From an uncultured Candidatus Saccharibacteria bacterium (lineage in GTDB: Bacteria; Patescibacteriota; Saccharimonadia; Saccharimonadales; Saccharimonadaceae), in the NCBI GenBank assembly GCA_963747455.1, contig CAVVEW010000001.1:32005-96004 (forward strand): DNA of 64,000 bases. Reading direction: 5' to 3'. A program made the translations under genes and the position numbers. How positions within the stretch are numbered: the first letter of the stretch is position 1; the number at the start of each line of letters is the position of its first letter. The notes below the pieces were generated by a model. The model was not told where the DNA came from. It did no database searches and worked only from the letters and a program-made list of their open reading frames with translations. This document shows, one piece after another, positions 525-51,387 of this stretch.

Positions 525-1382
525 CTAGTGCTTTGTTGGTGGCTCTGGTGTAGGGCTTGGCGCTGGTTTCGTCGGCTGCGGCAGGCTGAGCGCCCATAGG
601 CTGTATGACAGACTGGTGAATCGATGGGTATGGATTGTAATGAACAGATGCTGGTGTAATTTGTGGTTCTGGTTCAGGCATAGGCCGTGGTTGGTGTAAA
701 TTGCTGTGGCTGGACGAGCACCGGTGCTGCAATTGGGGCTGGCTGAGCCTGCAGGACGGGTGCCGGTGCTTGGGGGGTAGACGCTTGTGGGTGGGTAATG
801 TGATTCGATAACGTTTTTGCGCCTGACGGCATCGGCCTTATCGATGAGACTATCGATCGTCTGGGCGAGATTTCCTCCATCGTCGAGCATATCTTCGGCC
901 GTCTGGGCTTCGCTATAGACTTCGTTAGTCAGTGAGGTGCTCGCTGTCGGTGCGGCTGCGTGACGAATAGCCCAGCCGCGTGAGTCGGCGATATCTGCCA
1001 GGTAGGATAAACGGCGATCTGCCTCGTTGCCACCAAAGCTCTTTGTTAGACTCTCTTCTTCGGTCTTGGGTGCGGTGATTTCAACGATCTGCTCCACCCC
1101 GTCAGGTTTCCACAGGCGTTTACGGGGCTTGAGATAGTAGGATACCATCGCTGCGAGATACGTCTCCATGGGCTGATCTTTGCGCAAGGGCAGCGCAAGT
1201 GCTCCAAACAGTACGATGATCGGTAGTGGTAATATCGCGAGCGGTGGTAGCAATTTCCAAAGGCCGTACCCTAAAATACCTGCCATCGCAACGATGATCA
1301 GGTAGATAAACTGCCGAAACCCAAACGGGCCAACGAGTTTGTCGTCTGCTTCGACGTCTTGTGCTACTTTATAACTTGCCAT
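525..1382 (-). CDS. PrgI/VirB3-like T4SS membrane protein
   Basis: 285-aa ORF. The N-terminus MASYKVAQDVEADDKLVGPFGFRQFIYLIIVAMAGILGYGLWKLLPPLAILPLPIIVLFGALALPL is a short lead-in plus two TM helices, as in PrgI-family proteins that precede VirB4. The P/Q-rich C-terminal third has equally plausible alternative frames (ORFs 674-880 and 499-732), so the 3' end may be frameshifted. Confidence 0.5.
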   Translation of the reverse strand: MASYKVAQDVEADDKLVGPFGFRQFIYLIIVAMAGILGYGLWKLLPPLAILPLPIIVLFGALALPLRKDQPMETYLAAMVSYYLKPRKRLWKPDGVEQIVEITAPKTEEESLTKSFGGNEADRRLSYLADIADSRGWAIRHAAAPTASTSLTNEVYSEAQTAEDMLDDGGNLAQTIDSLIDKADAVRRKNVIESHYPPTSVYPPSTGTRPAGSASPNCSTGARPATAIYTNHGLCLNQNHKLHQHLFITIHTHRFTSLSYSLWALSLPQPTKPAPSPTPEPPTKH

Positions 1383-1402: not shown

Positions 1403-4102
1403 TTATTTCCACTTATCCTTAAACGTCGGATTCGTAACACTAATACTTCCGCCGAGTATGGTAGCCAGCTTTTTCATCTGCTCAACTTGGCGTGACTCAA
1501 GTTTAGCTCCGACATCTTTATCGTTTGCCGCTTCACTCATGGCGTCAACGAATCGCTGCTTTGCTTGAGGTGAAAGCGCGGTAAGAGTGGCAATGGCACT
1601 TGGGTCTGTTGCCCATTCGTTCATTTCATCGACATCCATACCACCAAGGTATTGGCCGTTTACTTTCGACCCCTTGGCGTCACCCTCGAGATCGCGTCTA
1701 ATTCGTTGATCTCTTGTCATCGTGAGCTGGCCATTTTCTAGCATTCCTCGGTCCGTTCCACTTAATGATTTTGGCATAAGCGGACTGCCGGCGAACGTAC
1801 GGTTGAGGTCACGCTGCAGTCGGACTACTGTTGCTTTTTGTGTTTCTGTCGCCCCGGGCGCCTGGGCGTCTGCACCCATTTGAACAAGATCTTCAACTAG
1901 ATCCTGCGTCGATTTTGCATTAGCAACTTCTTTAAAGCGCCTAAGAGCGGCAACTCTCTCATGATCCTTTAGGTTTGAATCATTTATTCTGATCATAAGT
2001 TCGTCTTTTGTACGCCCAGCTTTTTGCTCAAAGACCTGAGCGGCCTTAACGTCTTTCTCGAACTCATCTTCCTTTGCTTGAAGGGCGTATGACTGCACGA
2101 GCCCGCCAAGCTCCTTGTCGCCAGCTGCAAGTTTATTCGCGTATGCTACATCCGAACTTGCTCGATCGGCAACATAGTTACGCTCCCCTGCTTCGGCTGC
2201 TAGCTTAGCGTATCTATCTTTTTGCTCGCCCGTAATTCTATTGGCAGAGCCAATGCCGGCGACCCATGCTCGAGCTTTGCGCCTGCGACTGTGTGCGTCG
2301 CCGTATCTACTTCCGCCGCGCTCTCCATTCAGGATTTCTTGAGCTTTTGTAGCTTGGTTTCCACTTCGGAGGTTTTGTCGACGTTCGCTGTACCGGGCGC
2401 TCGCTTTTTTGGCGCGATCGAGCGGTCCGCGGTTTGGATTGTTGGTAAAACCGGCAATCTTGCCCATAATATTACTACTGGCACGCATAACACTGATTAC
2501 CAAGAACGCAGGTATTGCAAGTATTACAAGTGAAGCAACATAGAGGATACCACTAGTTGTCGTACTACGAATAATCTCTGAGGCGAGTTGCCCGGCACCA
2601 AAGAGTAGCGAGATAGTCGGAAACAATAAAAGCATCGCAAAAAATAACTTACGCCACTTAGTGAACCAGCTCTCCGTATTTGGAAGCAGATACGCCACAA
2701 ACGCAATGGTGAAAGGATAACGAGCATAATAATGATCGCTTGACGAGCAATTAAGAGGAATATAACTGTTAAAAATGCCATCAGTGCTGCAATCGCCCCA
2801 GGTATAAGTAGTGCTAGTGCGCCAAAAAATCCATACGATCCAACGGTTACGGCTGCTGTTCCAACCGCGAAAGCACAACCCCCCCAGCCAACAGCCACCC
2901 TGTGACTTCCGACCATGCGTTCAGATTATTATCTGCGCCATCAGCTACGATATTACCAAGCTGTACATCAAGAATGTTGTATATCGAGGTGCCTATGAGA
3001 TTTGATACATCGATGGCTAGGGCTGCAATCCAAAAAGACGCATTAACTAGAATTGCCGCAAGAATGAGCCGGGGAACCATCCGTTTGATACCATAATTGC
3101 TGAGCATTACTTTTTCGCCCCTCCTACCATCTGCGAGTAGATGATTATGAGAAATGCGACGATAAATAATACGTTAGCAAGGTTGCGCACATCCTTCCAG
3201 ATGCGGTAGGCCTCTGCATTTTTCCCTCCGAAGGATTGGTCGAAAACATCGACGAGTCCACTACGAGAAATTCTTTGATGATACCATATAAACTATCGTT
3301 TAATTTCGACATAAACGGCCACGGCTGGACAGACGATCCACCCGACTCCATCAATCTTGCAATCCTGTCGCACCTCTTCGCTGCAGGTTCCATCGGCGTT
3401 GTACGTCCCGCCACCATCTTCGCAGTCTGTTTAAGTTTGGTTTGATAGCTGCATCAAGTGTGGTGCCCCTTGTTTTTTGGCTTCATCCTCGACATTTTGC
3501 ATGGTTTGAAGTATAGTCCGATACGACTCGGTTCGTTTATTCGCTATACATCTAGCGACTGACATCGATGTTAATATCAGGAAATGTAAAGGTCGAACTT
3601 CCTTCATAGCCATTTTCATAAAACGCATTCATACACGTCGTCACCTGACTCTTCAGGATAGATTTACACTCATTTGCAATCTTTACATCTGAAGCGGTAT
3701 TGCTCGCCGGTCGACAAAATTTGTCGGCGAGCGCGGTATAGTAGATGTTTGTCACAGTAGAGGCCGCGGCAGCCTGGAGGGTTCTGGTTGTTGGCGGATA
3801 CGTCGACACAAGTGACTTTATAGCTCGGAGTGTACCACCGGGATTAGTGAGGTCACCCGTCGGGCTCGTACTAAATTTCGGGGTACACACTTCGTTACAA
3901 CTCTTGTCGTAGTCATCAATCGCGACAATCTTACCATTATATTTGCTGTAACAGGCTTTTTTCTGATCGTATGTCAGTGCGCTTGCGGATGGGCTGAAGC
4001 CATATGCAGCAAGAGTGAGCTGCACATCAGTACCCCAGCCATCATTACAAGTAGAGAGCGTCGAATATTCGCTGTGCCCCCAGCAACACGCTTATGTATC
4101 AT
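1403..4102 (-). CDS. giant VirB6/TrbL-like polytopic T4SS protein, paralogue 1 (multiple frameshifts in this assembly)
   Basis: Pieces in three frames join into one protein. They are the signal peptide MIHKRVAGGTANIRRSLLVMMAGVLM (ATG 4102), ORF 3552-4025, the motif CKIDGVGWIVCP (about 3300-3345), and ORFs 3145-3417, 2847-3107, 2524-2916 and 1403-2878. TM block MVPRLILAAILVNASFWIAALAID and FTKWRKLFFAMLLLFP, then a long charged tail. Paralogue of 5229-8225. Frame breaks lie at T5 runs 3111-3115 and 3229-3233. Confidence 0.6.
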
Positions 4103-5159: not shown

Positions 5160-5228
5160 CCTATGTGATTTTACAAATGTATTGCTAGGGGGCGCGAGGG
5201 GGTTTAAGGCCGGTTCCGGCTACATGGT

Positions 5229-8225
5229 CTATCTGGCGGTCGATAAGGTATTCATTTGGTGTTTCGACAGCACCTTAACTCGCGAGTGCCTGGGGGTCCC
5301 CGCCGGTACGCGCACACCGAATCTCGGGTCTTCGCTATCGTCGATATGGGTATTCATGTAGTAAATTTCTTTATGGATAGGAGGACGTGGGTCGGTAGGA
5401 TCGAGGTACGATGCAAGGACATTCATGATACCGCGCTCACGATCTTTGATGCGACCCTTGAGCATTGGGTTTGATTGAGCATCTTCGATGGCACGGAGGA
5501 TGGCCTAGTCGCCTCTTTTCAGGAATACTTTCACGGAAGTCTTCATTACGGTAGAGCTGCACCATACGTCCGAGCTCGTCTGGATCCATTGTTGACATGC
5601 GTTCTGGATCGTATTTACCACTGTTTGATTCGTATGCAATTAACTGTTCACTCATCGTGCTGAAGCCCTGCTCAGCCTTTACGCGGTATTGACCAGATTC
5701 CATGAGTGATCGCTGGGTTGAGGAGACGTAGCCAACCTTGAGTGGTGAGTTTGCGATTGCATCATTCATAATCTGCTGCATGTCACGGACATAGGTAACT
5801 TCTTCGCTATTTGCATCACCAACCAACGTTTTCGATCCATCCGTATTTACCTTGAAGTACGTATCGGTCGAGTCATCTCGCTCCAGTCCAAGTGTTGCAG
5901 ACCAGTCAATAATCTTCTGCGCCGCCCAGTTATTCCCAACGCCATTCATGACGCGTTGAATAGCAGCATGAATCTGGATCTCGTTTGCCTCAGATCCGTC
6001 TCGCATTTTCTTGTTCTCAATCACATTCATGAGCTCTTGTGCTTCATACCCTTCGTTCGTGTAGACGGAGTTGTAAGCTTTGACGTTCTCCATATGGAGG
6101 GCAGAGTGCTCGGAGCGTGCTTTCGCAAGCACCTTATCGGCACCAAGCTGATCGATACCACCGGCATATTCACGCGCGGACTGATCTGTGCGGAGGCGCT
6201 TCACTTCATTTGACTTGATCATGGTATCTGCGCTTGATTTACGCTTCTCTTGCTGGGCAATATCAAAGGTCAATTGGCCGAGGCGTTGCGTACGATCATC
6301 CATGGTTTGGCTACGAAGGTATTCGTCGACACCTTTTTGGAGACCGTCAAACTCGCTACCCTGGTAGCTGTTGACGCCGGCTTCCATCTCTCGGATGATT
6401 GCTTCGAACTTGTCTTCATCACGTTTCGCCTGGCTCTTGAGTTCGCGGGTGTTAAGTGTTGCGCGGTGAACACCCTGGTCAAAGTGGTGGCTGGTTGGGT
6501 CGAGCCGATTTTGCCAGTGTGCATCACCTGCAGCCTCAACTTGACCTTGGAACGTCTCAGCCTGCTTATGGAAGTCATGCGAATCGATAGCTCGTGTCTG
6601 CATGCGACGTCCGTAGCGACTCGATTCTTCGGCGATTTCGCGCTGACGAGAGGCATCTTGCCTGTTGTCGAGATACGACTCGTTGTCTTTTTTGGTCGCA
6701 TCGCGGCGGCGCTTTTGCTGGTCAAAGCGAAGGCCGAGTCGGGCTGCACCGCGGCCACGTGGGCTGAAGCGGCTGAGTTCGCCGTTTCGTCGGCGCTCGA
6801 CATCTTGCGCGGCATTGGCGAGCTTGTTGCTCTTGTGCATATCGGCATTGTCTTGTGCCCAGTTTCTCGCTCGGTCGGTTAGCCCCTTTTGCTTGTTGTT
6901 CGCCATATTGGCGATCTGACCGAGTACACCTGTGCTGAGGCGAGTAAGGAATGGCGTCAGAGCGAGCGGGATGACCTGGACGGTGAGACCGATGAGGAGC
7001 AGTGGAATCTGCATGGCTTCCGTGGCGTCTTTTGCTGTGCCGATAATTGCCGCCCCTGCGAGTTGCGACGCACCAAAGAGGAGGGCAAATGCTGGAAATA
7101 TGATGAGAAGGTTGGTAAATAGCTTGCGCCATTTGTCAAAAATCCCACGCGTGCTCGGTAGGATAAATGCGATAAATGCCAGTGGTGCGACGGCGGTCAA
7201 GACAACAATGAGCGCCTGGCGTGCTGCTAGGACGACAAAGGCTGCGAGTACGGAAAGCGCTGCGGATATCAGGGCCGCAAATATGATGAATCCCATCGAG
7301 GCCGCACTACCACCTGCTGCTGCAGCAAAACCGGCGATACCAATCGTGCCACCACCGAGTATTACGGCAGTCATGCTCGCCCAGTCAATATCTGTTGCTA
7401 CGGTATAGTTTTCTCTAATATTTACGAGGATTGCCTGAATTGAATATCCGAGAAGGTTTGAGGCATCGACTGCAAGGGCGCAGATCCAGAATGAGACATT
7501 GACGAGGATTGCGCCGATGATGAGCCGCGGTACCATGTCCTTGATGTTGTAGTTTGAGTATCCGGCGCCGGTAATCTGAGAGTAGATAATCACCATGAAA
7601 ACGATAAGGAAGGCGACGTTTGCGATATTACGCATAAGCTCCCAGAGCTGGTAGATTGCACTGTCGGTGGTGCTGATGGTTTGTACTTCGAGGAAGTTCG
7701 AGACGATGCTATATACCCAGTCGATACCGTCTGCGAGGTAGTTTGACAAGCGGACAGACCATCCAGCCTACGCCATCGATATTACAGTTGTTGTTGCCGG
7801 TTTGATTGGTGTCTTGCGCGTCGATAGTAAGGTCACGCGTGACGGTGACGGTTTGAGGGTTTGATGCTGCTGCAGTGAGGTAGTTGCCGCTGACGATTGG
7901 ATAGGAGATGAGGATGGCGCTATCTAGCCTGAGCGGGGTTGTCGGGGCCAAAGTACAGGACATTTGCCATCAGCGAATTGCCCGATCCTGAGCGCCACTC
8001 GTATTCATTTGGGGTGTCTGTTCGATCGGGGGGTGCGGTTACTTTGGTGTAGACACTGCCGTTGTAGGTTAGCTCGGTGCCCTTCCAGATAGCATCAGCA
8101 GCAAAGGCCTCCCGCGCGAGCGGTCCGACCGTGGTGAATGCCGGCATGAGAAAACTCAGTGCCAGTAGAATAATAAAGCGCCGAAAGTGTACCCTCGGCG
8201 CGCGTTGTTTACGCGTAACCCACAT
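5229..8225 (-). CDS. giant VirB6/TrbL-like polytopic T4SS protein, paralogue 2 (frameshifted)
   Basis: Main ORF 5437-7749 (770 aa) with MVPRLIIGAILVNVSFWICALAVD and FDKWRKLFTNLLIIFP. The N-terminal ectodomain is in ORFs 7920-8225 (signal peptide MWVTRKQRAPRVHFRRFIILLALSFLMPAF) and 7709-7963 (CNIDGVGWMVCP). The C-terminus continues in ORF 5229-5465 (AILRAIEDAQSNPMLKGRIKD..) after an extra G near 5500. Confidence 0.65.
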
Positions 8226-8265: not shown

Positions 8266-8350
8266 CTTTAAGGTGTATTTCACTACGTACTTTGACGGCT
8301 GCGACCAGGTATTGCATAAATCGCTTATCTCACCTATTCTAGGAGGTAGG

Positions 8351-8735
8351 ATGAAACTCAAACAAACATTCCTCGGTTTTGCAACATTTGCTGCTCTCGT
8401 AAGCAGCTCGCTTGCTGTAGCGCCTAGTGCTCACGCCCTCGAATGTACCGTCCTTCCAGATAGTATCTGTGGCAAAGCAGATAACGGTACACTCGAAAGT
8501 AGCGGTACATGGGCGTTGTTGATCTTTATAATCCAGCTGCTGACAGCGGGTGTTGGACTGGTCGCTGTGGGTATGATTGCCTATGCGAGCTTTTTGTATA
8601 CCACCGCGCAAAGTGATGAATCGCAGACCAAACAAGCTAAAGAAATGATACGAAATGTTGTTGTCGGACTACTGGTATATGCCTTTATGTGGGCAGCTGG
8701 CACAGTGGCTCATACCGGGAGGAGTATTCGCATGA
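8351..8735 (+). CDS. VirB2/TrbC-like T4SS pilin paralogue P1 (frameshifted, fused to next ORF in this assembly)
   Basis: AGGAGG then ATG 8351. Signal peptide MKLKQTFLGFATFAALVSSSLAVAPSAHA, then a two-helix hairpin. A 1-nt shift near 8695 restores ..LAQWLIPGGVFA with TGA 8733-8735 overlapping the next ATG. As given it reads through (ORF 8252-9154). Confidence 0.5.
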
Positions 8736-9154
8736 TTCGGCAAATGATGAGCGCATTTTTGATAACGGCATCGCTCGCGGGAGTGGTTGCGGTCGCGAGT
8801 CCAGCGCAAGCCTCCGCGGCCTGTGGCCGTCTCGTCACCTTCCCTGCTTGGTATAACGGCTTAACAGATAAAAATTGTGAGCTTAAGCCAGTTGGACAAG
8901 CTGACACAAGCACCGAGGTAACACTGAAAACTTTTATCGTACGCATCCTCATGAATATTATCGAGATGATTTTACAGCTCGTTGCCTATGCGGCGGTCGT
9001 CATGCTGATCATCGGTGGCTTCCAATACATCACGAGTACTGGTGACTCTGGTAATATGTCCAATGCCAAAAAGACGATTCTCAACTCTATCATCGGTTTG
9101 ATTATCTCGCTATTTTCGGTGGCGATTGTAAATATAATTGCGAATGCGTTTTAG
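8732..9154 (+). CDS. VirB2/TrbC-like T4SS pilin paralogue P2
   Basis: GGGAGGAG RBS then ATG 8732. Signal peptide MIRQMMSAFLITASLAGVVAVASPAQASA. C-terminal hairpin LVAYAAVVMLIIGGFQYITSTGDSGNMSNAKKTILNSIIGLIISLFSVAIVNII. Confidence 0.6.
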   Translation: MIRQMMSAFLITASLAGVVAVASPAQASAACGRLVTFPAWYNGLTDKNCELKPVGQADTSTEVTLKTFIVRILMNIIEMILQLVAYAAVVMLIIGGFQYITSTGDSGNMSNAKKTILNSIIGLIISLFSVAIVNIIANAF

Positions 9155-9157
9155 GCT

Positions 9158-9451
9158 ATGAAAGAACTTCTCTATTTAGCAGCAACAAAGTTAGACGCAG
9201 GATCTGTGGGCATACCGAAGGTTGATGCCGATGGAGCTTCGGTTGCTAAGTTGCTCAACGTCGTCTATTTTTGGGCGGGCATGATTGCAGTTCTTGTGAT
9301 TGTTATCGCAGGATATTACTTCGTGCTTTCAAGGGGTGATGCAAACCAAGTCACCCGTGCACGAAATGCCATCATCGCGGCCGTGGTCGGGTTGATAGTC
9401 ATACTCATGGCATTTACCATAACGCAATTTATTTTAGGAAATGTTGGATAA
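9158..9451 (+). CDS. VirB2-like pilin paralogue P3 (no obvious signal peptide)
   Basis: 97-aa ORF. Hairpin VYFWAGMIAVLVIVIAGYYFVLSRGDANQVTRARNAIIAAVVGLIVILMAF matches the shared core of its neighbours. Confidence 0.55.
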   Translation: MKELLYLAATKLDAGSVGIPKVDADGASVAKLLNVVYFWAGMIAVLVIVIAGYYFVLSRGDANQVTRARNAIIAAVVGLIVILMAFTITQFILGNVG

Positions 9452-9460
9452 GGAGACTCT

Positions 9461-9829
9461 ATGTTAAAAAAATTACGCTACACACTCGCCCTCGTTGGCC
9501 TCGGCACGACAGTATTGTTGGCACCAGCAGCACCAGCACACGCCATAAATCTATTTCCCGACTGTAAAGGATCGAGCACGGCAGTGTGCAAAGCGACAAA
9601 TAATGATAACGCTTCGTCGCTGATACAAGATATTATCAACGTGTTGCTCTTTGTTATCGGCGCGGTGGCCGTAGTGATGATAATCATCGGTGGTATCAGG
9701 TACACTACCTCAAACGGCGATTCAAATAGAACAACCGCTGCAAAAAACACGATACTGTACTCTGTAGTTGGTCTGGTGGTAGCAATTATGGCCTCGGCTA
9801 TAGTAAACTTTGTACTATCGTATTTATAA
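9461..9829 (+). CDS. VirB2/TrbC-like T4SS pilin paralogue P4
   Basis: AAGGAG RBS. Signal peptide ending APAHA. Core VLLFVIGAVAVVMIIIGGIRYTTSNGDSNRTTAAKNTILYSVVGLVVAIMASAIVNFV. Confidence 0.7.
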   Translation: MLKKLRYTLALVGLGTTVLLAPAAPAHAINLFPDCKGSSTAVCKATNNDNASSLIQDIINVLLFVIGAVAVVMIIIGGIRYTTSNGDSNRTTAAKNTILYSVVGLVVAIMASAIVNFVLSYL

Positions 9830-9853
9830 AGTTAATAAGAAACGGATTTACTC

Positions 9854-10233
9854 ATGCGAAATATAACCTCACTCCTCGCCTCACTCACACTTATCGTCGG
9901 TAGTATCGTGGCATGTCACTTGCTCCGACACCTGCACTCGCTGCGTGTAGTGGAGTCAACTGTGCGAAAGCAGGTGCAAAGGCAGCTGACACTGGCAGTA
10001 CGAAGAAAACACCAAACGATCTGATAAAATCCGTCGTCAACGTCTTGCTATTTATTACGGGCGCAATTGCCGTGGTTATGATCGTTTTGGGTGGGTTGAA
10101 ATACACTACATCTAACGGCGATTCAAACCAAGTTACCTCTGCAAAAAACACTATCTTGTATGCTGTCATCGGACTCATCGTCGCGATCATGGCATATGCC
10201 ATCGTAAACTTTGTTATCACCTCATTTGTATAA
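9854..10233 (+). CDS. VirB2/TrbC-like T4SS pilin paralogue P5 (frameshift in signal peptide)
   Basis: ATG 9854 encodes MRNITSLLASLTLIVGSIV, then a frame shift near 9908 into ORF 9913-10233. Core LLFITGAIAVVMIVLGGLKYTTSNGDSNQVTSAKNTILYAVIGLIVAIMAYAIVNFV. Confidence 0.6.
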
Positions 10234-10312
10234 ACAGAGCTTTACTCCTAAAGGGTTTTTTGGTATAAACATATAAGAACGACGCTAGTAAAAAACAAGA
10301 AGGGATAACCTT

Positions 10313-10717
10313 ATGAAGCAACGTATCACAAAAATTTTAAATATCGCAATGGCATTGCCTGTCGCCGCACTTATCGCGAGCGCAGTCCTGCCTATGTCAC
10401 CAGCATTCGCTGTCACCTGTGACCCCGCAAATGGTCTCGATGGCTCAGCGGAGTGTGCGCAAGGTAACGGACAGCCTGATAATCTCGTCGGTAACGGTGG
10501 TATTTTCCAGACTGTAACAAACATTCTGCTCTTTATCATTGGTGCAGTAGCAGTCATCATGCTCGTCATCGGTGGTATTCGCTACACTATCAGCAATGGT
10601 GATAGCAACCAAGTTACGGCCGCAAAAAACACAATCCTGTACGCGATTATCGGTATCGTCGTAGCCATCCTGGCATACGCAGCGGTCAACTTCGTGATTA
10701 CAAGCTTCGCGGTCTAA
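10313..10717 (+). CDS. VirB2/TrbC-like T4SS pilin paralogue P6
   Basis: 134-aa ORF with a signal peptide ending PAFA. Core LLFIIGAVAVIMLVIGGIRYTISNGDSNQVTAAKNTILYAIIGIVVAILAYAAVNFV. Confidence 0.7.
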   Translation: MKQRITKILNIAMALPVAALIASAVLPMSPAFAVTCDPANGLDGSAECAQGNGQPDNLVGNGGIFQTVTNILLFIIGAVAVIMLVIGGIRYTISNGDSNQVTAAKNTILYAIIGIVVAILAYAAVNFVITSFAV

Positions 10718-10740
10718 GAAACCTACTAGCGCATCTTAAT

Positions 10741-10767
10741 CCCTCGCACGCGTGCGAGGGATTTTTG
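10741..10767 (+). terminator. rho-independent terminator of the pilin array
   Basis: CCCTCGCACG/CGTGCGAGGG perfect 10-bp stem (10741-10760) followed by ATTTTTG. Confidence 0.7.
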
Positions 10768-10800
10768 TTGAAAGTAGACAGGACTTTTCATCGTATACTA

Positions 10801-10830
10801 AAAACGTCCGGAGTGTATCCGGACGTTTTT
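10801..10830. terminator. bidirectional terminator (hsp20 side)
   Basis: AAAACGTCCGGA gtgta TCCGGACGTTTTT, with A/T runs on both sides. Confidence 0.65.
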
Positions 10831-10848
10831 AGTCGCATTGCTGTTGGA

Positions 10849-11331
10849 TTACTGAACCATAATCTTCTTAGCTTGTTCTTGCTTGACCTTGTTGAAGGTG
10901 ATAGTAAGCACGCCGTCTTTTAGTACTGCTGCTACTTCTTCTTCCCTGACTTGAACTGGAAGTGCGAGGGTACGGTTGAATTCACCCCAGTAACACTCCT
11001 GTACATGCCAGTTTGTCGCATCTGAATCGTCACCACTACTTAGTGTGCCGCTAATAGATAGAATGCCATCAGAAATACTGACATCTAGATCTTCTTTGTT
11101 TACACCTGCGGTGCGTGCTTTTACGATTAATTGTTCGTCGGTTTCGTAGACGTCGACAGCGAGTTGACCGGGAAAATCATCTTGTTCTTGTTCCCAATCT
11201 TGTGAGTCATCCTGTGTCGGAGCCGCTTGTTGAGCAGGTTCAGCCACTGGGGTCGTCGTCGTGTCGTCGTCAAGAAAAGCTGCTGCCAGCTCGTCCTCGA
11301 TCAATAAATCGTCATTTTGCTTCCGGGCCAT
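10849..11331 (-). CDS. Hsp20/alpha-crystallin family small heat-shock protein
   Basis: ATG 11331 six nt after GGAGGA (the ORF-track start at 11343 is an upstream GTG). Acidic N-terminus, then an alpha-crystallin-type domain FPGQLAVDVYETDEQLIVKARTAGVNKEDLDVSISDGILSISG...LKDGVLTITF. Promoter TTGATT-17-TATAAT lies upstream. Confidence 0.8.
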   Translation of the reverse strand: MARKQNDDLLIEDELAAAFLDDDTTTTPVAEPAQQAAPTQDDSQDWEQEQDDFPGQLAVDVYETDEQLIVKARTAGVNKEDLDVSISDGILSISGTLSSGDDSDATNWHVQECYWGEFNRTLALPVQVREEEVAAVLKDGVLTITFNKVKQEQAKKIMVQ

Positions 11332-11441
11332 GATATCCTCCACTTTTCTCTAGGCTCTAATTTGACGTCTAGTCTAAAACAAATTATAACCAGTATATAT
11401 ACTATAATCAAGAACTATCAGGGGTATACGTAAAAATAACA

Positions 11442-12113
11442 ATGATATCTGCTCTAAAAAACCTTATTTTACCCGACTACTGTTGCTCTTGCGGTGATAT
11501 TGGCGCAATTATATGTGAAAATTGTAAATATGACATCGTTTCTGATATTCCTCAGCTTTGCGTTGCCTGCCGAGTGCCGCAAAGTCGTGATGGTGTGTGT
11601 GGATCGTGCGCCCTCCCCTATACTCACTCCTGGTACGTCGGTGACCATCGAGGGGCGCTGGAGTCTCTTGTCGCTGTGAGTAAGTTTAATGCAAACCGCA
11701 GTGGATGCGACGCGCAAGCAGGGCTGATTAACCATATCCTGCCGAGTCTGCCAACTGGTACCGTGATTGTGCCAGTCCCAACGATAGCAAAACACATTCG
11801 ACAGCGAGGTTATGGGCATGCCGAACGCATCGCTAGGCAGCTCGCACGCCTCCGTGGGGTACAGTCGCGACGTGTCGTCGGTCGAAATGCACAGTTTGTT
11901 CAACACGGTGCCAATCGTACGACGCGTCAAAAACAAGCAAAAAGTTCGTACATACTGACAGAGAAGCTCGAGCCGAATGTGACGTATGTGATTGTCGATG
12001 ACGTGTTTACGACTGGCTTTACGACGCAGTATGTTGCGCAAACACTTCGTGATGGAGGCGCGAGTGATGTGTGGGTCGCAGTCACCTCTCGCCAGCCTAT
12101 CGACGAGAAGTGA
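11442..12113 (+). CDS. comF: ComF-family protein (phosphoribosyltransferase domain, ComFC-like)
   Basis: N-terminal Cys clusters (CCSCG..CENC..CVAC..CGSC) plus C-terminal PRTase motif YVIVDDVFTTGFT. Confidence 0.7.
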   Translation: MISALKNLILPDYCCSCGDIGAIICENCKYDIVSDIPQLCVACRVPQSRDGVCGSCALPYTHSWYVGDHRGALESLVAVSKFNANRSGCDAQAGLINHILPSLPTGTVIVPVPTIAKHIRQRGYGHAERIARQLARLRGVQSRRVVGRNAQFVQHGANRTTRQKQAKSSYILTEKLEPNVTYVIVDDVFTTGFTTQYVAQTLRDGGASDVWVAVTSRQPIDEK

Positions 12114-12151
12114 TAGATTTGCTATAATTCACCGAGTGTCACGCACTTTAT

Positions 12152-12239
12152 GGAGAGGTGACCGAGTGGTTTAAGGTACTTGTCTTGAAAACAAGCGTGG
12201 GGCAACTCACCGCGAGTTCGAATCTCGCCCTCTCCGCCA
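12152..12239 (+). tRNA. tRNA-Ser (anticodon TGA)
   Basis: GGAGAGG acceptor, anticodon stem-loop CTTGT-CTTGAAA-ACAAG, long variable arm, T-arm GCGAG-TTCGAAT-CTCGC, encoded CCA. TATAAT at 12123-12128. Confidence 0.9.
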
Positions 12240-12241
12240 AG

Positions 12242-12271
12242 AAAAATGCAGATCGTTTGGTCTGCATTTTT
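12242..12271 (+). terminator. terminator after tRNA-Ser(TGA)
   Basis: AAAAATGCAGA tcgtttgg TCTGCATTTTT. Confidence 0.65.
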
Positions 12272-12435
12272 CTTGCCCGCACTTCAACAAGTATAAACCC
12301 GGAAACCGCAGCACGAATGCTAACGATTTCCGGGGGTGGGTGTAGTGGAGCCGAGACGGGGCGCATATCTGCACGGCATCTGGCCTGACTTCACCTCACC
12401 TATCGTGGCTATCCACCACGCTATTCAAAAGTATA

Positions 12436-12831
12436 CTAGACGTTTGTTCCCGACGTGCTGCCAGGCGCAAAGCTACCGATTACAAAGTTGACGGCTGCGT
12501 AGGCTAGGATTGCGACCACGATACCGATGATTGCATACAAAATTGTATTTTTTGCCGCGGTAATCTGGTTTGAGTCACCACCCGAGAGAACGTAGCGCAT
12601 ACCACCGATGACAATCATGATGACGGCGATTGCTCCGATGATGAAGAGTAGAACATTGGTGATAGTTGAGAAGGTGCCATTTGCTCCGAAAAGTTCAACT
12701 GGTTGACCCTGGCCACGAGCTGCGTTTGCTCCATTTTGCACACCATCGACTGCATAGACGCCAGGAGCGAGGTAGAGTGAGGTTGCGGATATGACGGCGA
12801 GGCTGAGGACTGCTGATAATAGCGTTTTCAT
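12436..12831 (-). CDS. VirB2/TrbC-like T4SS pilin paralogue P7 (stand-alone copy)
   Basis: 131-aa ORF with a signal peptide ending PGVYA. Core LLFIIGAIAVIMIVIGGMRYVLSGGDSNQITAAKNTILYAIIGIVVAILAYAAVNFV. Protein is near-identical to P6 in the core, with many synonymous nucleotide differences. Confidence 0.7.
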   Translation of the reverse strand: MKTLLSAVLSLAVISATSLYLAPGVYAVDGVQNGANAARGQGQPVELFGANGTFSTITNVLLFIIGAIAVIMIVIGGMRYVLSGGDSNQITAAKNTILYAIIGIVVAILAYAAVNFVIGSFAPGSTSGTNV

Positions 12832-12981
12832 GATTTCACGACTCCTTTGGAATTATGCTTCGATTATTGCACAGAGCGGAGTCCGTGTCGAGGTCTGAAA
12901 CTGTTTTATCAGAGAGAGGAGTATGCTATACTTACTCGAGCCAGAGCCTGTAATAAGGCTCAAAAATTCATAATGGAGTGT

Positions 12982-13187: not shown

Positions 13188-13280
13188 GGAGGAGTACCCA
13201 AGTGGCTGAAGGGGACGGTTTGCTAAATCGTTAGTGTGGGGAGACCTGCAGCGGGAGTTCGAATCTCCCCTCCTCCGCCA
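13188..13280 (+). tRNA. tRNA-Ser (anticodon GCT)
   Basis: GGAGGAG acceptor, anticodon loop TTGCTAA, long variable arm, T-arm GGGAG-TTCGAAT-CTCCC, encoded CCA. Confidence 0.9.
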
Positions 13281-21147: not shown

Positions 21148-22008
21148 ATGCCGACCAAAAAACCTATTATCCGTTTGAACGGTCTCGTAAAAAAGTACGG
21201 GATTGGTGACGCTGAGCACCGAGCACTCGATACGGTCGATTTATCGATCGATGCGGGTGAGTTCGTGGCTATCATGGGGCCGTCGGGATGCGGCAAGACG
21301 ACGCTACTCAATATCTTGGGTCTGCTCGACCGTGCAGATGATGGCGAATACCTACTCGACAACGAGGACGTTGAGCAATTCTCTGATCGGCGCCGTGCAC
21401 ACGTTCGCTCAAAACAAATCGGCATCGTATTTCAAAACTTCAACCTGATTGATCGCATGACCGTAATCGAAAACGTCGCCCTTCCTCTGACCTATCATGG
21501 TTTGCGGCGTACAAAGCGCCTCGAAGCTGCGAGCCAATCGCTCAAGACATTTCATCTCTCTGAGCGAGAGTATTATCTGCCCCATCAGCTATCTGGTGGA
21601 CAAATGCAACGCGTGGCGATCGCACGTGCGCTCGTAAACAAGCCTACCCTCATCTTGGCCGACGAGCCAACTGGTAATCTCGACAGCCGCTCAAGTCACG
21701 TCATCATGGAAGAGCTAGCGGATTTGCACCGTCGTGGAAACACAATTCTTATGGTGACTCATAATCCCAATCTAACAAGTTATGCGAGTCGTGTAATCAA
21801 CATGCTCGATGGTCGTGTGGCGAGTGACAAGAAGATTCGGGTTTCGGCGGTATCGGATGTCCAGAAGATTACGCTCCGTACACCGAAGAAGACGAAAGCC
21901 GAGGAAAAGCCTACGAAAAAAGCGACGAGTAAGAAAAAGTCGACCAAGACCGCAACAAAGAAGCGAGTGACCGCAAAAAATGCGAAGAAAAAGGAGAAAA
22001 CGTCGTGA
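21148..22008 (+). CDS. ABC transporter ATP-binding protein (MacB/LolD-like) with Lys-rich C-terminal tail
   Basis: Walker [10 protein letters not shown], signature [15 protein letters not shown], Walker [13 protein letters not shown]. 60-aa K/T-rich tail. Confidence 0.85.
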
Positions 22009-23223
22009 GAATGCTCATCGCTGACTATATCGATACCGCTGCGCACTCGCTTCGCATGAACAGGATGCGAACGCTCCTCACTACCGTTGGAGTTGCAATA
22101 GGTATTGCGAGCGTTACGACGATTCTGGCACTCGCGCAGGGCGTAACCTCTGCGGTGAACAGCCAAGTGAACCAAGTCGGCGGAAATGTCGCGGTCATTC
22201 GACCTGGTGTCGAAACGCCGAGTGATTTGACGCGTCCCATTCTGCCCCAGCAGTTCAACACGAGCAGCTTAACAGAGAATGATGTCGAGGCTATACGTAC
22301 AGCAAACAAGGGGCTTACCGTTGCGCCTATCATGACGCTAAACGCAACCCTTCGATCGAAAACATCTACTGTTCCAACTACCTTGGTTGCGAGTTCACCT
22401 GAACTGGCTAAGACGACCGATTTACCGATAGATCAAGGACAGTTTCTCGATGAAAGTACCTCGGACAATGTCGCTATCGTTGGTCGGCAGCTCTCGATTG
22501 ATCTGTTCGGTACAGATAACCCAATCAGTCAGCAGTTTAAGGTTCAGAGGAGAGACGTTCACCGTTATCGGCGTACTGAAGATGCTCGACAATCCAGTCA
22601 ATTACAACAATGTAGATTTTGATAATGCCGCAGTAATCACTTTCCGCCAGGGGAAGTCGCTCAACGATGGGCGTACGCAGATTCAGCAAATAAATATCCG
22701 TGCCAGCAGCCCTGAGGAGCTAGAAAAAGCAATCGATTCGATTTCTACACAATTGAAAAAACTTCACGGCGAAGATGACTTCCAAATCCTCACTGGCACC
22801 GATGTTGCATCGACGACCAATCGCACCTTTCAATGGGTGGCAGCAGTCATGACAGCAATTGCCGCAGTATCGCTACTCGTAGGTGGGATTGGCATCATGA
22901 ATATCATGCTCGTCGGGGTCGCAGAACGTACGCGCGAAATTGGTATCCGAAAGAGTGTGGGTGCAAGTAATGGCACGATCGTGATTCAGTTTATGGTTGA
23001 GGCATTGATGCTTAGCTTGCTCGGCGGCATCGTCGGTGTTATTGCAGGTCTGGTACTTGCGTTCTCACTATCGCTCGGTCTCTACTTTACACCGGTCTTT
23101 TCATGGCAGATTTTTGCTCTGGCGCTTGGCGTATCACTCGTTGTGGGCGTCATATTTGGCCTTTATCCTGCAATACGTGCTGCGCGAAAAGACCCTATCG
23201 AGAGTCTTCGACAGTACAGATAG
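22005..23223 (+). CDS. ABC transporter permease, MacB/FtsX-like (frameshift near 22555)
   Basis: ORFs 22005-22622 and 22450-23223 join at ..ISQQFKV/GETFTVIGVLK... The C-terminal FtsX block IGIRKSVGASNGTIVIQFMVEAL is present. Start overlaps the ATPase stop (GTGA). Confidence 0.75.
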
Positions 23224-42721: not shown

Positions 42722-43859
42722 CTATACTCGTTTAGACCGAGCGTCAATGTAGTCGATAATCTTTTGTTTGAAGGCAGAAACATCGAAACGCTCGGAGCTT
42801 TCATGAAGGCTATTTACATCAAAAGTGATTGATTCAGCTTGTTGAATAGCCCCGACAACGCTCTCGACAGTTTGCTGATCAAACAAGACACCGGTTTTTC
42901 CATCTGTCACGATATCGAGGGCGCCACCAACGCCATACGCAATCACGGGCGTTCCACCTGCCATCGCCTCTACAGGAGTAATACCGAAGTCTTCCTCGGC
43001 GGGAAATAGCAAACCGCGGGCAGTGTTGTATGCTTCGGTGATACGGGCCTGGTCCACGGCCGAGGGTGTTCCTGGATAAAACGACACGGTTGGCCCGGCC
43101 AGCGCGACGAGCTTGGTCATGTTCGCTGCCGTCGCCAAACACCCGAAGCGGCAAAGAAAGTTCATTCGCGGCCAAGATTGCAAGGTCGAGCCGCTTGTAG
43201 GGAATATGACGCGAAAGTGCCATATAAAAATCACTTCGTTTTTTTGAAGGCGTAAATCGCTTTGTGTCGACAGGCGGATGTATCACATCGGCGTTTCGCT
43301 CATAGTACTGTTGTATGCGACGAGCCACGCTACTAGAGTTGCCTATAAAATAGTCTACCGATTGAGCGGCCTGAAAGTCGGCGCGCTTAAGGCGAGGAAC
43401 AAAGAGCGGCATCGTGAGCCGGATGAGCCAGTTCAGCCTCCCAAAGCCGGGGTCGGATCGGTATTGCTCGTAATGGCTCCAGTAGTAACGAATCGGCGTG
43501 TGACAGTAGCAAATATGTACTTGGTCGTCGCGCGTTTTGCGGACCTGTTTTGCTTCGGCGCTAGCGCTCGAAAGGATGACATCGTACTCCGACAGGTCAA
43601 GCTTGCGAAATGCATGAACACGAAGCATGGGAAAAAACTTATGCAGCTTGCGCAAGGGGCGCGGCAATCTTTGTAGATATGTTGTTCGTACGTCGGCATT
43701 TGCAAACGCCGGAACGTATTCCGGGGTGTATACGCTGGTATAAATTGGCGCGTCAGGGAAGGCCTCGTGAAATGCGAGCACTACTTTTTCTGCGCCGCCC
43801 ATGTTTGTCAGCCAGTCACAAACGATCGCTACTCTAGGTTGGGATTTTGTCGTACTCAT
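42722..43859 (-). CDS. glycosyltransferase family 4 (frameshift near 43180)
   Basis: ORF 42879-43859 (N-terminal domain, VAIVCDWLTNMGGAEKV) plus ORF 42722-43234 (..LLFPAEEDFGITPVEAMAGGTPVIAYGVGGALDIV..). Confidence 0.7.
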
Positions 43860-47088: not shown

Positions 47089-49510
47089 ATGGACGGAATC
47101 CATGTGGTACATCGCGACGGCACCCGCGTACCATTTGACGCCAACAAGATCAACCTGGCACTTGTAAAAGCAAGTGAAGGCCTTCCTGATCAGATCAGCA
47201 AGGTAGTACAGGTTGCGACAGAGCTCCAGTTGACACTGTTTGACGGTATCACGACGGAACAGCTCGACGAGGCAGTCATCCAGACAGCGCTACAGAATAT
47301 CAAGGACGACCCTGATTTCGACAAGATCGCAGCGCGCCTACTACTAAAGAATATCTATAAGAACATTCTCGGTGATTTCGATACAAAAGCAGAGCTCAAA
47401 AAGCTCCATGCCCAGAAGTTTCCAAGCTATATCAAGAACGCAGTCGCTGATGGTTTGCTCGACAAGCGCATGAACGACGGTCGATATGACCTCAAGAAGC
47501 TCGCTGCTGCTCTGGAACCAGAGCACGACGAGCTATTTAAATATATCGGTGTGGTAACGAACAAAAACCGTTACGCACTCCGCAAAAACTCTGGCGCTCC
47601 ACTCGAGACGCCACAGTTTACCCACATGCGCATCGCTATGGGACTGGCATACAACGAAGAAGACCCAACCGCAGCGGCACTCGAGTTTTACGACCACATG
47701 GCCAAGCTCGAATACGTCACAGGTGGTTCAACTCGTGTCAACGCCGGCGGCGCATTCCCGCAACTCAGTAACTGTTTCCTCATGGAAGTCCAAGACGACA
47801 TGGAATCGATCGCAAAATCGGTTCGCGACACGATGTGGATCGCCAAGGGTACGGGTGGTATTGGTATCACTATGACCAAACTCCGTGCAGCAGGCAGCCC
47901 TGTTCAAGACGACCAACACCGAGTCAACGGGCCCAATTCCATTTATGAAGATGATCGACTCTGCGCTCTTTGCTGTCAGCCGCAAAGGCAAGAAAGCAGG
48001 CGCAGCAGCGATGTATCTCGAAAACTGGCACCTAAACTTTCCTCAATTTCTGGATCTCCGCCAAAACTCTGGCGACCCATACTTGCGTACTCGTATCATG
48101 AACACCGCCGTCTATATTTCGGACGAATTCATGAAACGCGTCGAAGCTGACAAAGATTGGTACCTATTTGACCCGGCGGAAGTATCTGACTTACCTGAGC
48201 TATATGGCGAGGAATTTTCAAAGCGTTACAACGAATACGTAAAACTCGCCGAAGCTGGCAAAATGAAGGAATTCACCTCACTCCCTGCTCGCCAGCAATT
48301 CCGACAAATCCTGACCACACTCCAGGCGACCAGCCACCCATGGCTCACATGGAAGGATACGATCAACGTTCGTGCACTCAACAACAACACCGGCACGATT
48401 CACTGTTCGAACCTCTGTACTGAGATCACACTGCCTCAAGACGAAAAGAACGTTTCTGTCTGTAACCTCATCAGCATCAACTTGAGCCAACACCTCAACG
48501 ACGACCTGAGTTTTGACTACGAGCGTATGGAAAAGAGTGTACGTGCGGCAACCCGCCAGCTCGACAACCTCGTCGACATCACCAACACGCCGATTCCAGA
48601 GGCAATGCACTCAAACTCAGCCAACCGCGCAATCGGCCTCGGCCTGATGGGCTTTACCGATGTCCTCGAACGACGCAACCACAGTTACGACAGCAAGGAA
48701 TCGTTTGATCTCATCGACGAAGTCGTCGAGTTCATCAGCTACCACGCTATCGACGAATCAGCAGAGCTCGCAAAGACTCGCGGCAGCTACGACACCTTCA
48801 AGGGAAGTGGCTGGAGCAATGGCTTGCTCCCAATCGACACGCTCGACGAACTCGCCGCATCACGCAAGACAAAGGTCAATATCACCCGCAAGCACAAACT
48901 CGACTGGGACGTCCTGCGCAAAAAGACCAAAAAGGGTATGCGAAACGCAACACTCATGGCGATTGCACCGACAGCAAACATCGGTCTCGTTGCTGGCACG
49001 ACGCCAGGCCTCGACCCACAATTTGCACAGATCTTTAGCCGAAGCACACTCAGTGGTAAATTTCTCGAAGTCAACGTCAACCTAGTAAACACACTCAAGG
49101 AAGCTGGCCTGTGGGACAAGGTAAAAGATGAAGTGCTTTCCCGCCAAGGTGATATCCAAGATATCGACGTCATTCCACAAGACATCAAAGACGTCTTCAA
49201 GACAAGTTTCCAGCTCAGCCCGTATGCCTTCATCGAAGTGGCAGCCCGAGCACAAAAGTATGTCGACCAAGCAATCAGCCGCAACATGTACCTCGATACC
49301 CGAAACATCGACGACTACATCGAGATTTATACCGAAGCATGGAGGCGCGGCCTCAAAACTACTTACTATCTGCACGTGAAACCACGACACCAAGCTGAAC
49401 AGTCAACCACTCATGTCAACAAGACTGAAGAGATGGCAAAAAGCTCTGGTGGTGCGAAACGATCTGGGTTTGGATTTGCAAAGAAACAATCGGTGGGAGG
49501 TGATGCATGA
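47089..49510 (+). CDS. nrdA: ribonucleoside-diphosphate reductase alpha subunit, class I with ATP-cone (frameshift near 47905)
   Basis: ATP-cone VVHRDGTRVPFDANKINLAL. ..NCFLMEVQDDMESI..GGIGITMTKLRAAGSPV / KTTNTESTGPIPFMKM..CSNLCTEITL.. joins ORFs 47089-48150 and 47885-49510. Confidence 0.9.
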
Positions 49511-50303: not shown

Positions 50304-51387
50304 ATGGCAGGAATATTAGGCAGCGGTATCCAAGACGGATTACTGCTCAAGCCAATCCACTACCCGTGGGCATGGAGCTGTACGACCAAGCAGTCGCAAA
50401 CACGTGGTTTCCAAACGAAATCCAGCTCGGGCAAGACCTGAGCTGACTGGAAGAAGATGACCGACGAAGAGCGCTACGCGGTCGAATTCCTCATGGGCTA
50501 TTTCAACCCAAATGAGCTGCTCGTCAACAAAGCACTCGCATTTGGCGTCTACCCATACGTAAACGCAGCAGAATGTCACCTCTACCTCGCAAAGCAAATG
50601 TGGGAAGAGGCAAACCACTGTATGGCGTTTGAGTACGTGCTCGAAACATTCCCGATCGACCGTGAAAAGGCATATGCCTCGCACGTCGACGAGCCAACTA
50701 TGGCGCGCAAAGAAGAGTTCGAGATGAAAGCTATCAAGCGCATGACCGAGAAGCACCTCGACATCACGACGACCGAAGGTAAAAAGGACTTCATCCGCAA
50801 CCTGATCGCCTACAACATCATCCTCGAAGGTATCTGGTTTTACTCTGGCTTCATGGTTGCACTCAGCTTCCGCCAGCGAAACCTACTGCGCAACTTTGGC
50901 TCAGCTGATCGACTGGGTCGTCCGAGACGAAAGTCTTCACCTCAAGTTCGGTATCAACCTGATTCTGACGACACTGGAAGAAAACGAAGACCTCCAGACA
51001 GAAGAGTTCGCAAACGAGATCAAGCAGACTATTCTCGACGCTGTGGAGATGGAAGAAGAATACAACAAGGCGATGCTGCCAAAGGGTATCCTTGGTCTCA
51101 ACGCCGACTACGTCAACCAGTACGTGAAGTACCTGACCGACCGCCGCCTCGAAGAGCTCGGTTTTGAGCCACACTACAAGGTTTCAAACCCAGCCAAGTG
51201 GATGGCGACAGCAAACGACACGCTCGAGCTGGTCAACTTCTTTGAAAGCACCAATACGAGCTACGAAGTCAACGCTGGCAACAGTGCCAGTACACTCAAG
51301 CCTCAGTCACCAAGTGGTGCACGCGGCGAAACCGATCCAGACGTAAGTATTCTGGAAAACGAAGCTGCCGAAAACGGCGACAAGTAG
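50304..51387 (+). CDS. nrdB: ribonucleoside-diphosphate reductase beta subunit (at least 3 frameshifts)
   Basis: AAGGAGA then ATG 50304. MAGILGSGIQDGLLLKPIHYPWAW / ELYDQAVANTWFPNEIQL.. / ORF 50457-51167 (..EEANHCMAFEY..ILEGIWFYSGF..) / ORF 50857-51387 (..RDESLHLKFG..). The ferritin-like di-iron motifs are present. Confidence 0.85.

Follow-up and report, generated by a model that had tools for sequence, protein, structure and literature searches.

The genes described here form an array of pilin-like paralogues in a stretch of 64,000 nucleotides (hereafter the window) from an uncultured Candidatus Saccharibacteria bacterium (contig CAVVEW010000001.1, positions 32,005 to 96,004 of the forward strand, assembly GCA_963747455.1). 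The locus most likely represents the Saccharimonadia version of a known pilin locus associated with a type IV secretion system (T4SS), which comprises a six-gene operon (P1 to P6) and a monocistronic seventh gene (P7), all of them encoding VirB2-like two-helix hairpins. It is not a new kind of system, and the feature has already been published. What is added here is the correction of two probable assembly artefacts, the positional orthology of the array, and the connection of P2-P3 fusions with a third subunit that lacks a leader. We consider it rather probable that the array encodes specialized, non-redundant hairpin subunits of one T4SS-associated pilus or stalk, with P7 serving as a dispensable alternative to P6.

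A listing of open reading frames (ORFs), their translation and a Pfam scan gave seven PF18895 (T4SS_pilin) domains, and they lie where an earlier reading of this DNA made without database searches (the sequence-only reading) had placed seven pilin-like paralogues, six in a divergent tandem array and one alone. P1 to P6 are arranged in tandem on the plus strand (8351-10717), diverging from a minus-strand VirB6-like gene with its start at 8225, and P7 stands by itself on the minus strand (12436-12831). With a gathering cutoff of 26.6 bits for PF18895, P3, P4, P5, P6 and P7 score 31.4, 48.5, 49.5, 43.6 and 41.6 bits, respectively, P1 reaches 27.5 bits once repaired as explained below, and the ORF in which P1 and P2 appear fused reaches 55.4 bits, the best stretch being that of P2. 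The domain was matched by all 21 proteins from the window and its orthologues.

The individual proteins share the hairpin and differ in what precedes it. P1 (8351 to ~8735) holds a predicted signal peptide (...SAHA/LE), a Cys-loop ectodomain, the two-helix hairpin and a C-terminal QWLIPGGVF tail. P2 (8732-9154, 140 aa) has the signal peptide AQASA/AC, the longest ectodomain, which includes a Cys pair, and a divergent hairpin. P3 (9158-9451, 97 aa) begins 3 nt past the P2 stop and consists of a 35-aa N-terminal tail followed by the hairpin; it has no signal peptide, as the sequence-only reading had correctly recognized. P4 (9461-9829, 122 aa) combines a signal peptide and a Cys pair with a canonical hairpin, which is also found in P5 (9854/9913-10233), and P6 (10313-10717, 134 aa) closes the array. 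P7 (131 aa), a paralogue of P6 with no Cys residues, ends in a PGSTSGTNV tail and has a separate ribosome-binding site (AAGGAG). Cys pairs, which had been noticed in some of the N-termini, are present in the mature N-terminal regions of P1, P2, P4, P5 and P6, and absent from those of P3 and P7.

As assembled, two of these genes are broken. P1 has no in-frame stop, and 8351-9154 reads as a single ORF of 267 aa, and the P5 leader MRNITSLLASLTLIVGSIV, starting at the ATG at 9854, is out of frame with the P5 body. Taken at face value, these defects could mean that the array is decaying, P1 having lost its stop and P5 its signal peptide, so that both would be pseudogenes. This explanation is very improbable. 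DNA alignment with two relatives reduces each defect to a single-base indel (P1 has a surplus base near 8695, and P5 lacks one near 9909), and the reading frames downstream are still fully conserved. Also split across frames in the window are nrdA, nrdB, a MacB/FtsX permease gene, a GT4 glycosyltransferase gene and both VirB6-like genes (examples of such regions are 47089-49510, 50457-51387, 22005-23223, 42722-43859, 1403-3417 and 5209-8225), which fits assembly error, and because so many other genes of the window are split, the P1 and P5 indels are most likely errors of the assembly rather than biology. The assembly seems to be rich in single-base indels, and any frameshift or "pseudogene" in the window (1-64000) is suspect.

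Once repaired, P1 has 127 aa (129 aa in relatives, where it ends in ...QWLIPGGIF[SR]*), and its TGA stop overlaps the ATG of P2 (ATGA), the same overlap being seen in relatives. Repaired P5 has 126 aa, and its orthologues are proteins of 127 aa that hold the leader. A true fusion of P1 and P2 was considered and rejected, since a P2 leader inside the protein would reverse its topology, the window is alone in showing the fusion, and the relatives keep the ATGA overlap.

Comparison of the seven copies with one another separates a canonical class from three divergent members. The sequence-only reading had proposed a near-invariant hairpin motif for P2 and P4 to P7; this stands for P4, P5, P6 and P7, which match its 43 residues exactly, but not for P2, which departs from it at 17 positions and is therefore grouped with the divergent members. 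The greater divergence claimed for P1 and P3 was confirmed (24 and 18 mismatches, respectively). At the amino acid level, the cores of P4 to P7 are 63-82% identical to each other, that of P2 is 35-43% identical to those four, and the values for P1 and P3 are 21-44%. The regions preceding the core, which had been described as unrelated between paralogues, are indeed only 9-36% identical. P6 and P7 had been taken to be almost identical in their cores and yet to differ at many synonymous sites. Near-identity does not hold, as 12 of 68 residues differ (82% amino acid identity; 150 of 204 nucleotides identical). However, a proportion of synonymous differences (pS) of 0.64, together with a dN of 0.15 and a dN/dS of ~0.1, means that they are old paralogues under purifying selection, as that reading had concluded.

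Species-representative genomes were scanned for comparison, which yielded 79 Saccharimonadia loci, and the pilin domains in them were classified by means of custom hidden Markov models and BLAST. Six-gene arrays identical in layout to that of the window are present in L001 and L002. A P1-type gene opens 68 arrays, with sizes of four (1 array), five (10), six (39), seven (17) and eight genes (1), six being the mode. In the 39 six-gene arrays, which come from different species, the best match of each gene in other genomes is at the same position in 100, 98, 84, 56, 66 and 97% of the cases for positions 1 to 6, respectively. Judged from these matches, the order of the array genes is orthologous by position. 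P1 is single-copy in 64 of the 68 arrays, P2 in all 68, and P3 in 48, and P4-P7-type copies are the sole class that varies from 1 to 5 per array (mode 3). The architecture of the proteins is also maintained, with three hydrophobic segments at positions 1, 2, 4, 5 and 6 in 29-34 of the 39 arrays, and with two segments rather than three, and so no signal peptide, at position 3 in 31 of them.

The stand-alone copy is likewise old. It is found on the opposite strand, 1.2-5.2 kb downstream, in 31 arrays; the layout of six genes plus one also occurs in L002/L003, L004 and 31 other loci, and the relative position of P7 is kept in L003, L004 and 31 other loci. All 33 stand-alone copies of other species are of P7 type, the last gene of the array is of P6 type in 56 of 72 loci, and P7 orthologues (76-88% identical) are encoded on the same contigs as those of P6. 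The stand-alone copy is thus an ancient, separate lineage. Nearly every comparison between orthologues is saturated at synonymous sites, which leaves dN and identity as the informative measures. The dN values are 0.05-0.34 for the core and 0.13-0.75 for the ectodomain, and the ectodomains are 40-79% identical. The cores of P6 and P7 are the most conserved (89-95% between orthologues; 89-94% for P6).

A close counterpart of this locus is that of Saccharibacteria strain S. epibionticum ML1 (Candidatus Southlakia epibionticum), for which essential predicted pilin subunits within a T4SS cluster have been reported (Wang et al. 2023, PMC10633639). Table S1 of that study lists PrgI, two VirB6-like genes and, on the plus strand, SEML1_0014-0019 (399, 558, 312, 381, 384 and 417 bp), followed by Hsp20, ComF (K02242), tRNA-Ser, one more gene and a "pilin" gene on the minus strand, SEML1_0024. 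The gene order and the neighbours are the same as in the window, a likeness that rests on synteny, lengths and Pfam positions. The ML1 proteins have 132, 185, 103, 126, 127 and 138 aa, plus 144 aa for the stand-alone copy, versus 127, 140, 97, 122, 126 and 134 aa, plus 131 aa, in the window (P1 and P5 repaired). ML1 is a different species, and P7 lies nearer the array in the window (1.7 kb). The third ML1 protein (103 aa) holds PF18895 at residues 38-99 (PMC10633639, Table S2) and would therefore also be leaderless. Essentiality, which is known from the ML1 literature only, was addressed there by transposon sequencing: SEML1_0014-0019 were all classified as GD/ES/ES (PMC10633639, Table S1), whereas SEML1_0024, the orthologue of P7, was NE at all time points, with 22-23 insertions; Hsp20 was essential and ComF was not (PMC10633639).

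A different view of such arrays has been proposed by Quinonero-Coronel et al. (2025, PMC12102498), who found 441 arrays, each with 2-11 pilin genes, among 383 Patescibacteria assemblies, especially of Saccharimonadia, and, drawing a parallel to Bartonella and Anaplasma, suggested a role in host adaptation. Those arrays, like that of the window, consist of tandem PF18895 genes with low within-array identity near an MPF-FATA-like T4SS, although the core identity of P4, P5 and P6 (66-71%) seems to exceed the maximum of 54% given there, which presumably refers to whole proteins. The authors read them as the product of amplification and variation, while the positional orthology described above points to fixed, specialized subunits.

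The sequence-only reading had also suggested that the copies might be interchangeable, possibly with a role in host range or antigenic variation. According to this explanation, which is the one proposed for virB2 of Bartonella and Anaplasma, surface-exposed subunits would be swapped to suit hosts or to escape recognition, and it could account for the unrelated N-terminal ectodomains of the paralogues, for the variation of P4-P7-type copies between species (1-5) and for the dispensability of P7 in ML1. It is nonetheless distinctly improbable, and the data presented here speak against it. The copies are ancient, their order is conserved by position, and synonymous sites are saturated between paralogues, without any trace of recent duplication or gene conversion, which sets the locus apart from the multi-copy virB2 type of Bartonella and Anaplasma. 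Besides, the ectodomains that differ so much between paralogues are conserved between orthologues, the stand-alone copies of other species are all of P7 type, and each of the six ML1 array genes has been called essential. Interchangeable or variable copies are disfavoured because of this positional orthology, ectodomain conservation and individual essentiality. The accompanying idea of major and minor pilins is plausible.

Another feature that suggests fixed roles is the relationship between the second and third genes. In at least four species (SZUA-359, UBA2951, UBA2952 and CG2_30_41_52), P2 and P3 are fused in frame with no internal start, and the same is probably true of L010. The fusions span 8681-9535 in L006, 7960-8685 in L037, 7961-8686 in L039 and 1219-1947 in L056, and the probable one spans 6165-6968 in L010. 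The fused second and third pilins make up one four-helix protein, an arrangement that goes with the conserved leaderless third pilin, and no description of it was found in the literature consulted. Contrary to the apparent P1-P2 fusion of the window, a P2-P3 fusion is topologically coherent because, in the predicted topology, the C-terminus of P2 and the N-terminus of P3 are both outside the cell.

On these grounds, we infer the following mode of assembly. All precursors except P3 would be exported by the Sec pathway and cleaved after an AxA site, leaving a short, paralogue-specific N-terminal ectodomain, often closed by a disulfide. Both termini would face the outside, and the conserved GDSN..AKN loop the inside. 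The adjoining monoderm (MPF-FATA-like) T4SS would then extract the subunits from the membrane and build one pilus- or stalk-like conduit, in which P1, P2 and P3 may be single-copy specialized parts, P2 and P3 acting as a pair, P4 to P6 would be the canonical building subunits, and P7 an alternative to P6 that the cell can do without. It is possible, although we put it forward only tentatively, that the structure is an ordered heteromeric conduit of six position-specific hairpins instead of a homopolymeric VirB2 pilus, that P2 and the leaderless P3 are an obligate tandem pair, and that P7 is a conditional substitute for P6, for example at another stage of the life cycle.

The T4SS association of these pilin-like paralogues, which the sequence-only reading had proposed, agrees with the presence of PF18895 in all seven and with the match of P4 to TrbC/VirB2 (PF04956). 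Similar to VirB2/TrbC proteins, such as the Agrobacterium T-pilin and F TraA, the window proteins are small, have a leader and a pair of hydrophobic helices with a short polar loop between them, and are encoded beside VirB3-, VirB4- and VirB6-like genes. On the contrary, they belong to a monoderm host, numerous paralogues take the place of a single major pilin, VirB5 and the cyclase are not evident here, and six of the seven copies are below the PF04956 gathering cutoff of 27.9 bits (P3, for instance, scores 14.2 bits). Only five of the 21 window and orthologue proteins match PF04956 at E <= 0.01, and P4 gave no match when searched by tblastn against 72,556 plasmids. The label "VirB2-like" is reasonable, but the similarity to canonical VirB2 is weak and membership in that family is not established.

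Some copies also resemble the Mbov_0395 family (NF045849) from the integrative and conjugative elements (ICEs) of Mycoplasma, whose members also have a hairpin of ~80 residues and also belong to a monoderm MPF-FATA-type T4SS. With a curated cutoff of 40 bits, 41.9 bits are reached by the fused P1-P2 ORF, in which P2 gives the best stretch, and 41.1 bits by P4, whereas P3 (35.3), P5 (34.3), P6 (27.8) and P7 (24.1) remain below, the window having five copies at 24-35 bits. To our knowledge, the Mycoplasma ICE pilin-like proteins are single-copy, and we know of no pilus in the wall-less bacteria from which this family comes. The fact that P2 (8732-9154) and P4 (9461-9829) pass the cutoff suggests that monoderm MPF-FATA systems, which are usually said to have no VirB2, may include pilin-like hairpins after all, and hints that these hairpins are perhaps native to systems of this type and not borrowed from diderm ones.

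Several observations weigh against a pilus or stalk of specialized subunits. No filament has been seen, and the roles given to the individual copies are inferred throughout. P4, with 31.7 bits, is the sole copy above the Pfam TrbC cutoff. Searches of PDB sequences with P4 and with a P6/P7 profile gave no match even at E <= 10, and hhalign against VirB2 of Agrobacterium and Acetobacter, a weak test with four sequences from annotated plasmids (including Ti), gave a probability of 0.5% (E = 0.11). An AlphaFold2 model of P6 shows the hairpin (helices 64-93 and 98-133) with pLDDT >95, but the best Foldseek match of this model in the PDB has an E of 1.8 and the matches are generic helical hairpins, among which the method discriminates poorly; no pilin appears in the top 50. 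In addition, the essentiality of the upstream array genes in ML1 could be due to polarity of the transposon on P6. Finally, orthology is hard to resolve at positions 4 and 5 (56-66% same-position matches) and the number of P4-P7-type copies ranges from 1 to 5, so some redundancy is possible.

Part of these data could also be explained if the proteins were not pilus subunits at all, but small components of the monoderm T4SS channel that are integral to the membrane and do not polymerize outside the cell, "pilin" being then a misnomer. Gram-positive T4SSs have no pili (PMC12857230), and the failure to match solved pilin structures or Agrobacterium VirB2 significantly, the passing of NF045849 by P2 and P4, and the absence of a signal peptide in P3 would all be in line with it. 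This possibility is unlikely, however, as five copies combine a predicted cleavable signal peptide with a Cys-loop ectodomain, P4 scores as Pfam TrbC, and seven paralogues are many for a purely structural role in the membrane. A pilus conduit has also been considered by others: a 2025 review refers to six VirB2-like pilins of conserved structure and divergent sequence and speculates about such a conduit (PMC12857230).

The Saccharibacteria T4SS has been described as essential for epibiotic life, with a function completely unknown (PMC11665869). What sets this T4SS apart most is the pilin array, since a pilin is not usually present in monoderm systems. The positional orthology, the third subunit that has no leader and is sometimes fused, and the seventh copy, both ancient and dispensable, speak for a structure of several subunits rather than a set of variants, and the comparison across genomes both sharpens this question and points to genetic experiments in the tractable ML1.

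With respect to expression, a candidate promoter for the array (TTGACG, 18 nt, TGcATAAAT with an extended -10; 8292-8321, plus strand) was read from the sequence by eye, although the consensus promoter scan did not list it. A ribosome-binding site (AGGAGG, ~8341-8346, plus strand) precedes P1, good sites are found at P1, P2 and P4, and the P1/P2 and P2/P3 junctions are tight or overlapping. The operon is closed by an intrinsic terminator (10738-10763, plus strand) with a U run after the hairpin; the 46-nt stretch that contains it (10730-10775) folds at -19.2 kcal/mol (z = -4.05). P7 forms a transcription unit of its own. Its promoter-like site (TCGACA, 17 nt, TG-AATAAT; 12863-12891, minus strand) matches 10 of 12 consensus positions and includes an extended -10, and a terminator hairpin downstream (12240-12277, minus strand; -21.3 kcal/mol, z = -4.83) abuts tRNA-Ser (12152-12239, plus strand).

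Leftward from the array, the order is the VirB6-like gene, two small genes, a second VirB6-like gene and PrgI/VirB3, VirB4 lying past the left edge of the window. The first VirB6-like T4SS gene (5209-8225, minus strand; TrbL_3-type in relatives) occupies three frames here, as tblastn with the 1249-aa protein of L002 gives segments in frames -3, -1 and -2, and its orthologues carry PF19590. The second (1403-3417, minus strand) is a TrbL_3-type paralogue of the first, is split over at least three frames and has intact counterparts of 617-660 aa in relatives. PrgI (VirB3-like; 525-1382, minus strand; PF12666, E 5e-11) belongs to the same T4SS operon. On the other side, Hsp20 and ComF follow P6, and these two genes and tRNA-Ser separate the array from P7, as in ML1 (regions 10849-12239 and 13188-13280). 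A ribonucleotide reductase, a spermidine-synthase-like gene and ABC transporters of the window also parallel the origin-proximal region of ML1.

The P1 tail QWLIPGG(V/I)F (8700-8735) is conserved between genomes in its amino acids and nearly so in its nucleotides, and overlaps the ribosome-binding site of P2 (GGGAGG). It may be a processing or sorting motif, or merely reflect a constraint of translational coupling. Finally, P6 and P7 have thousands of homologues each, all with PF18895 and all from Saccharibacteria wherever a source is named. Some records assigned to Streptomyces caniscabiei (a 958-kb contig), to Verrucomicrobiia and to Acidobacteriota also contain close homologues of P6, and are probably mislabelled or mis-binned Saccharibacteria; the Streptomyces caniscabiei record could correspond to an epibiont present in the culture.

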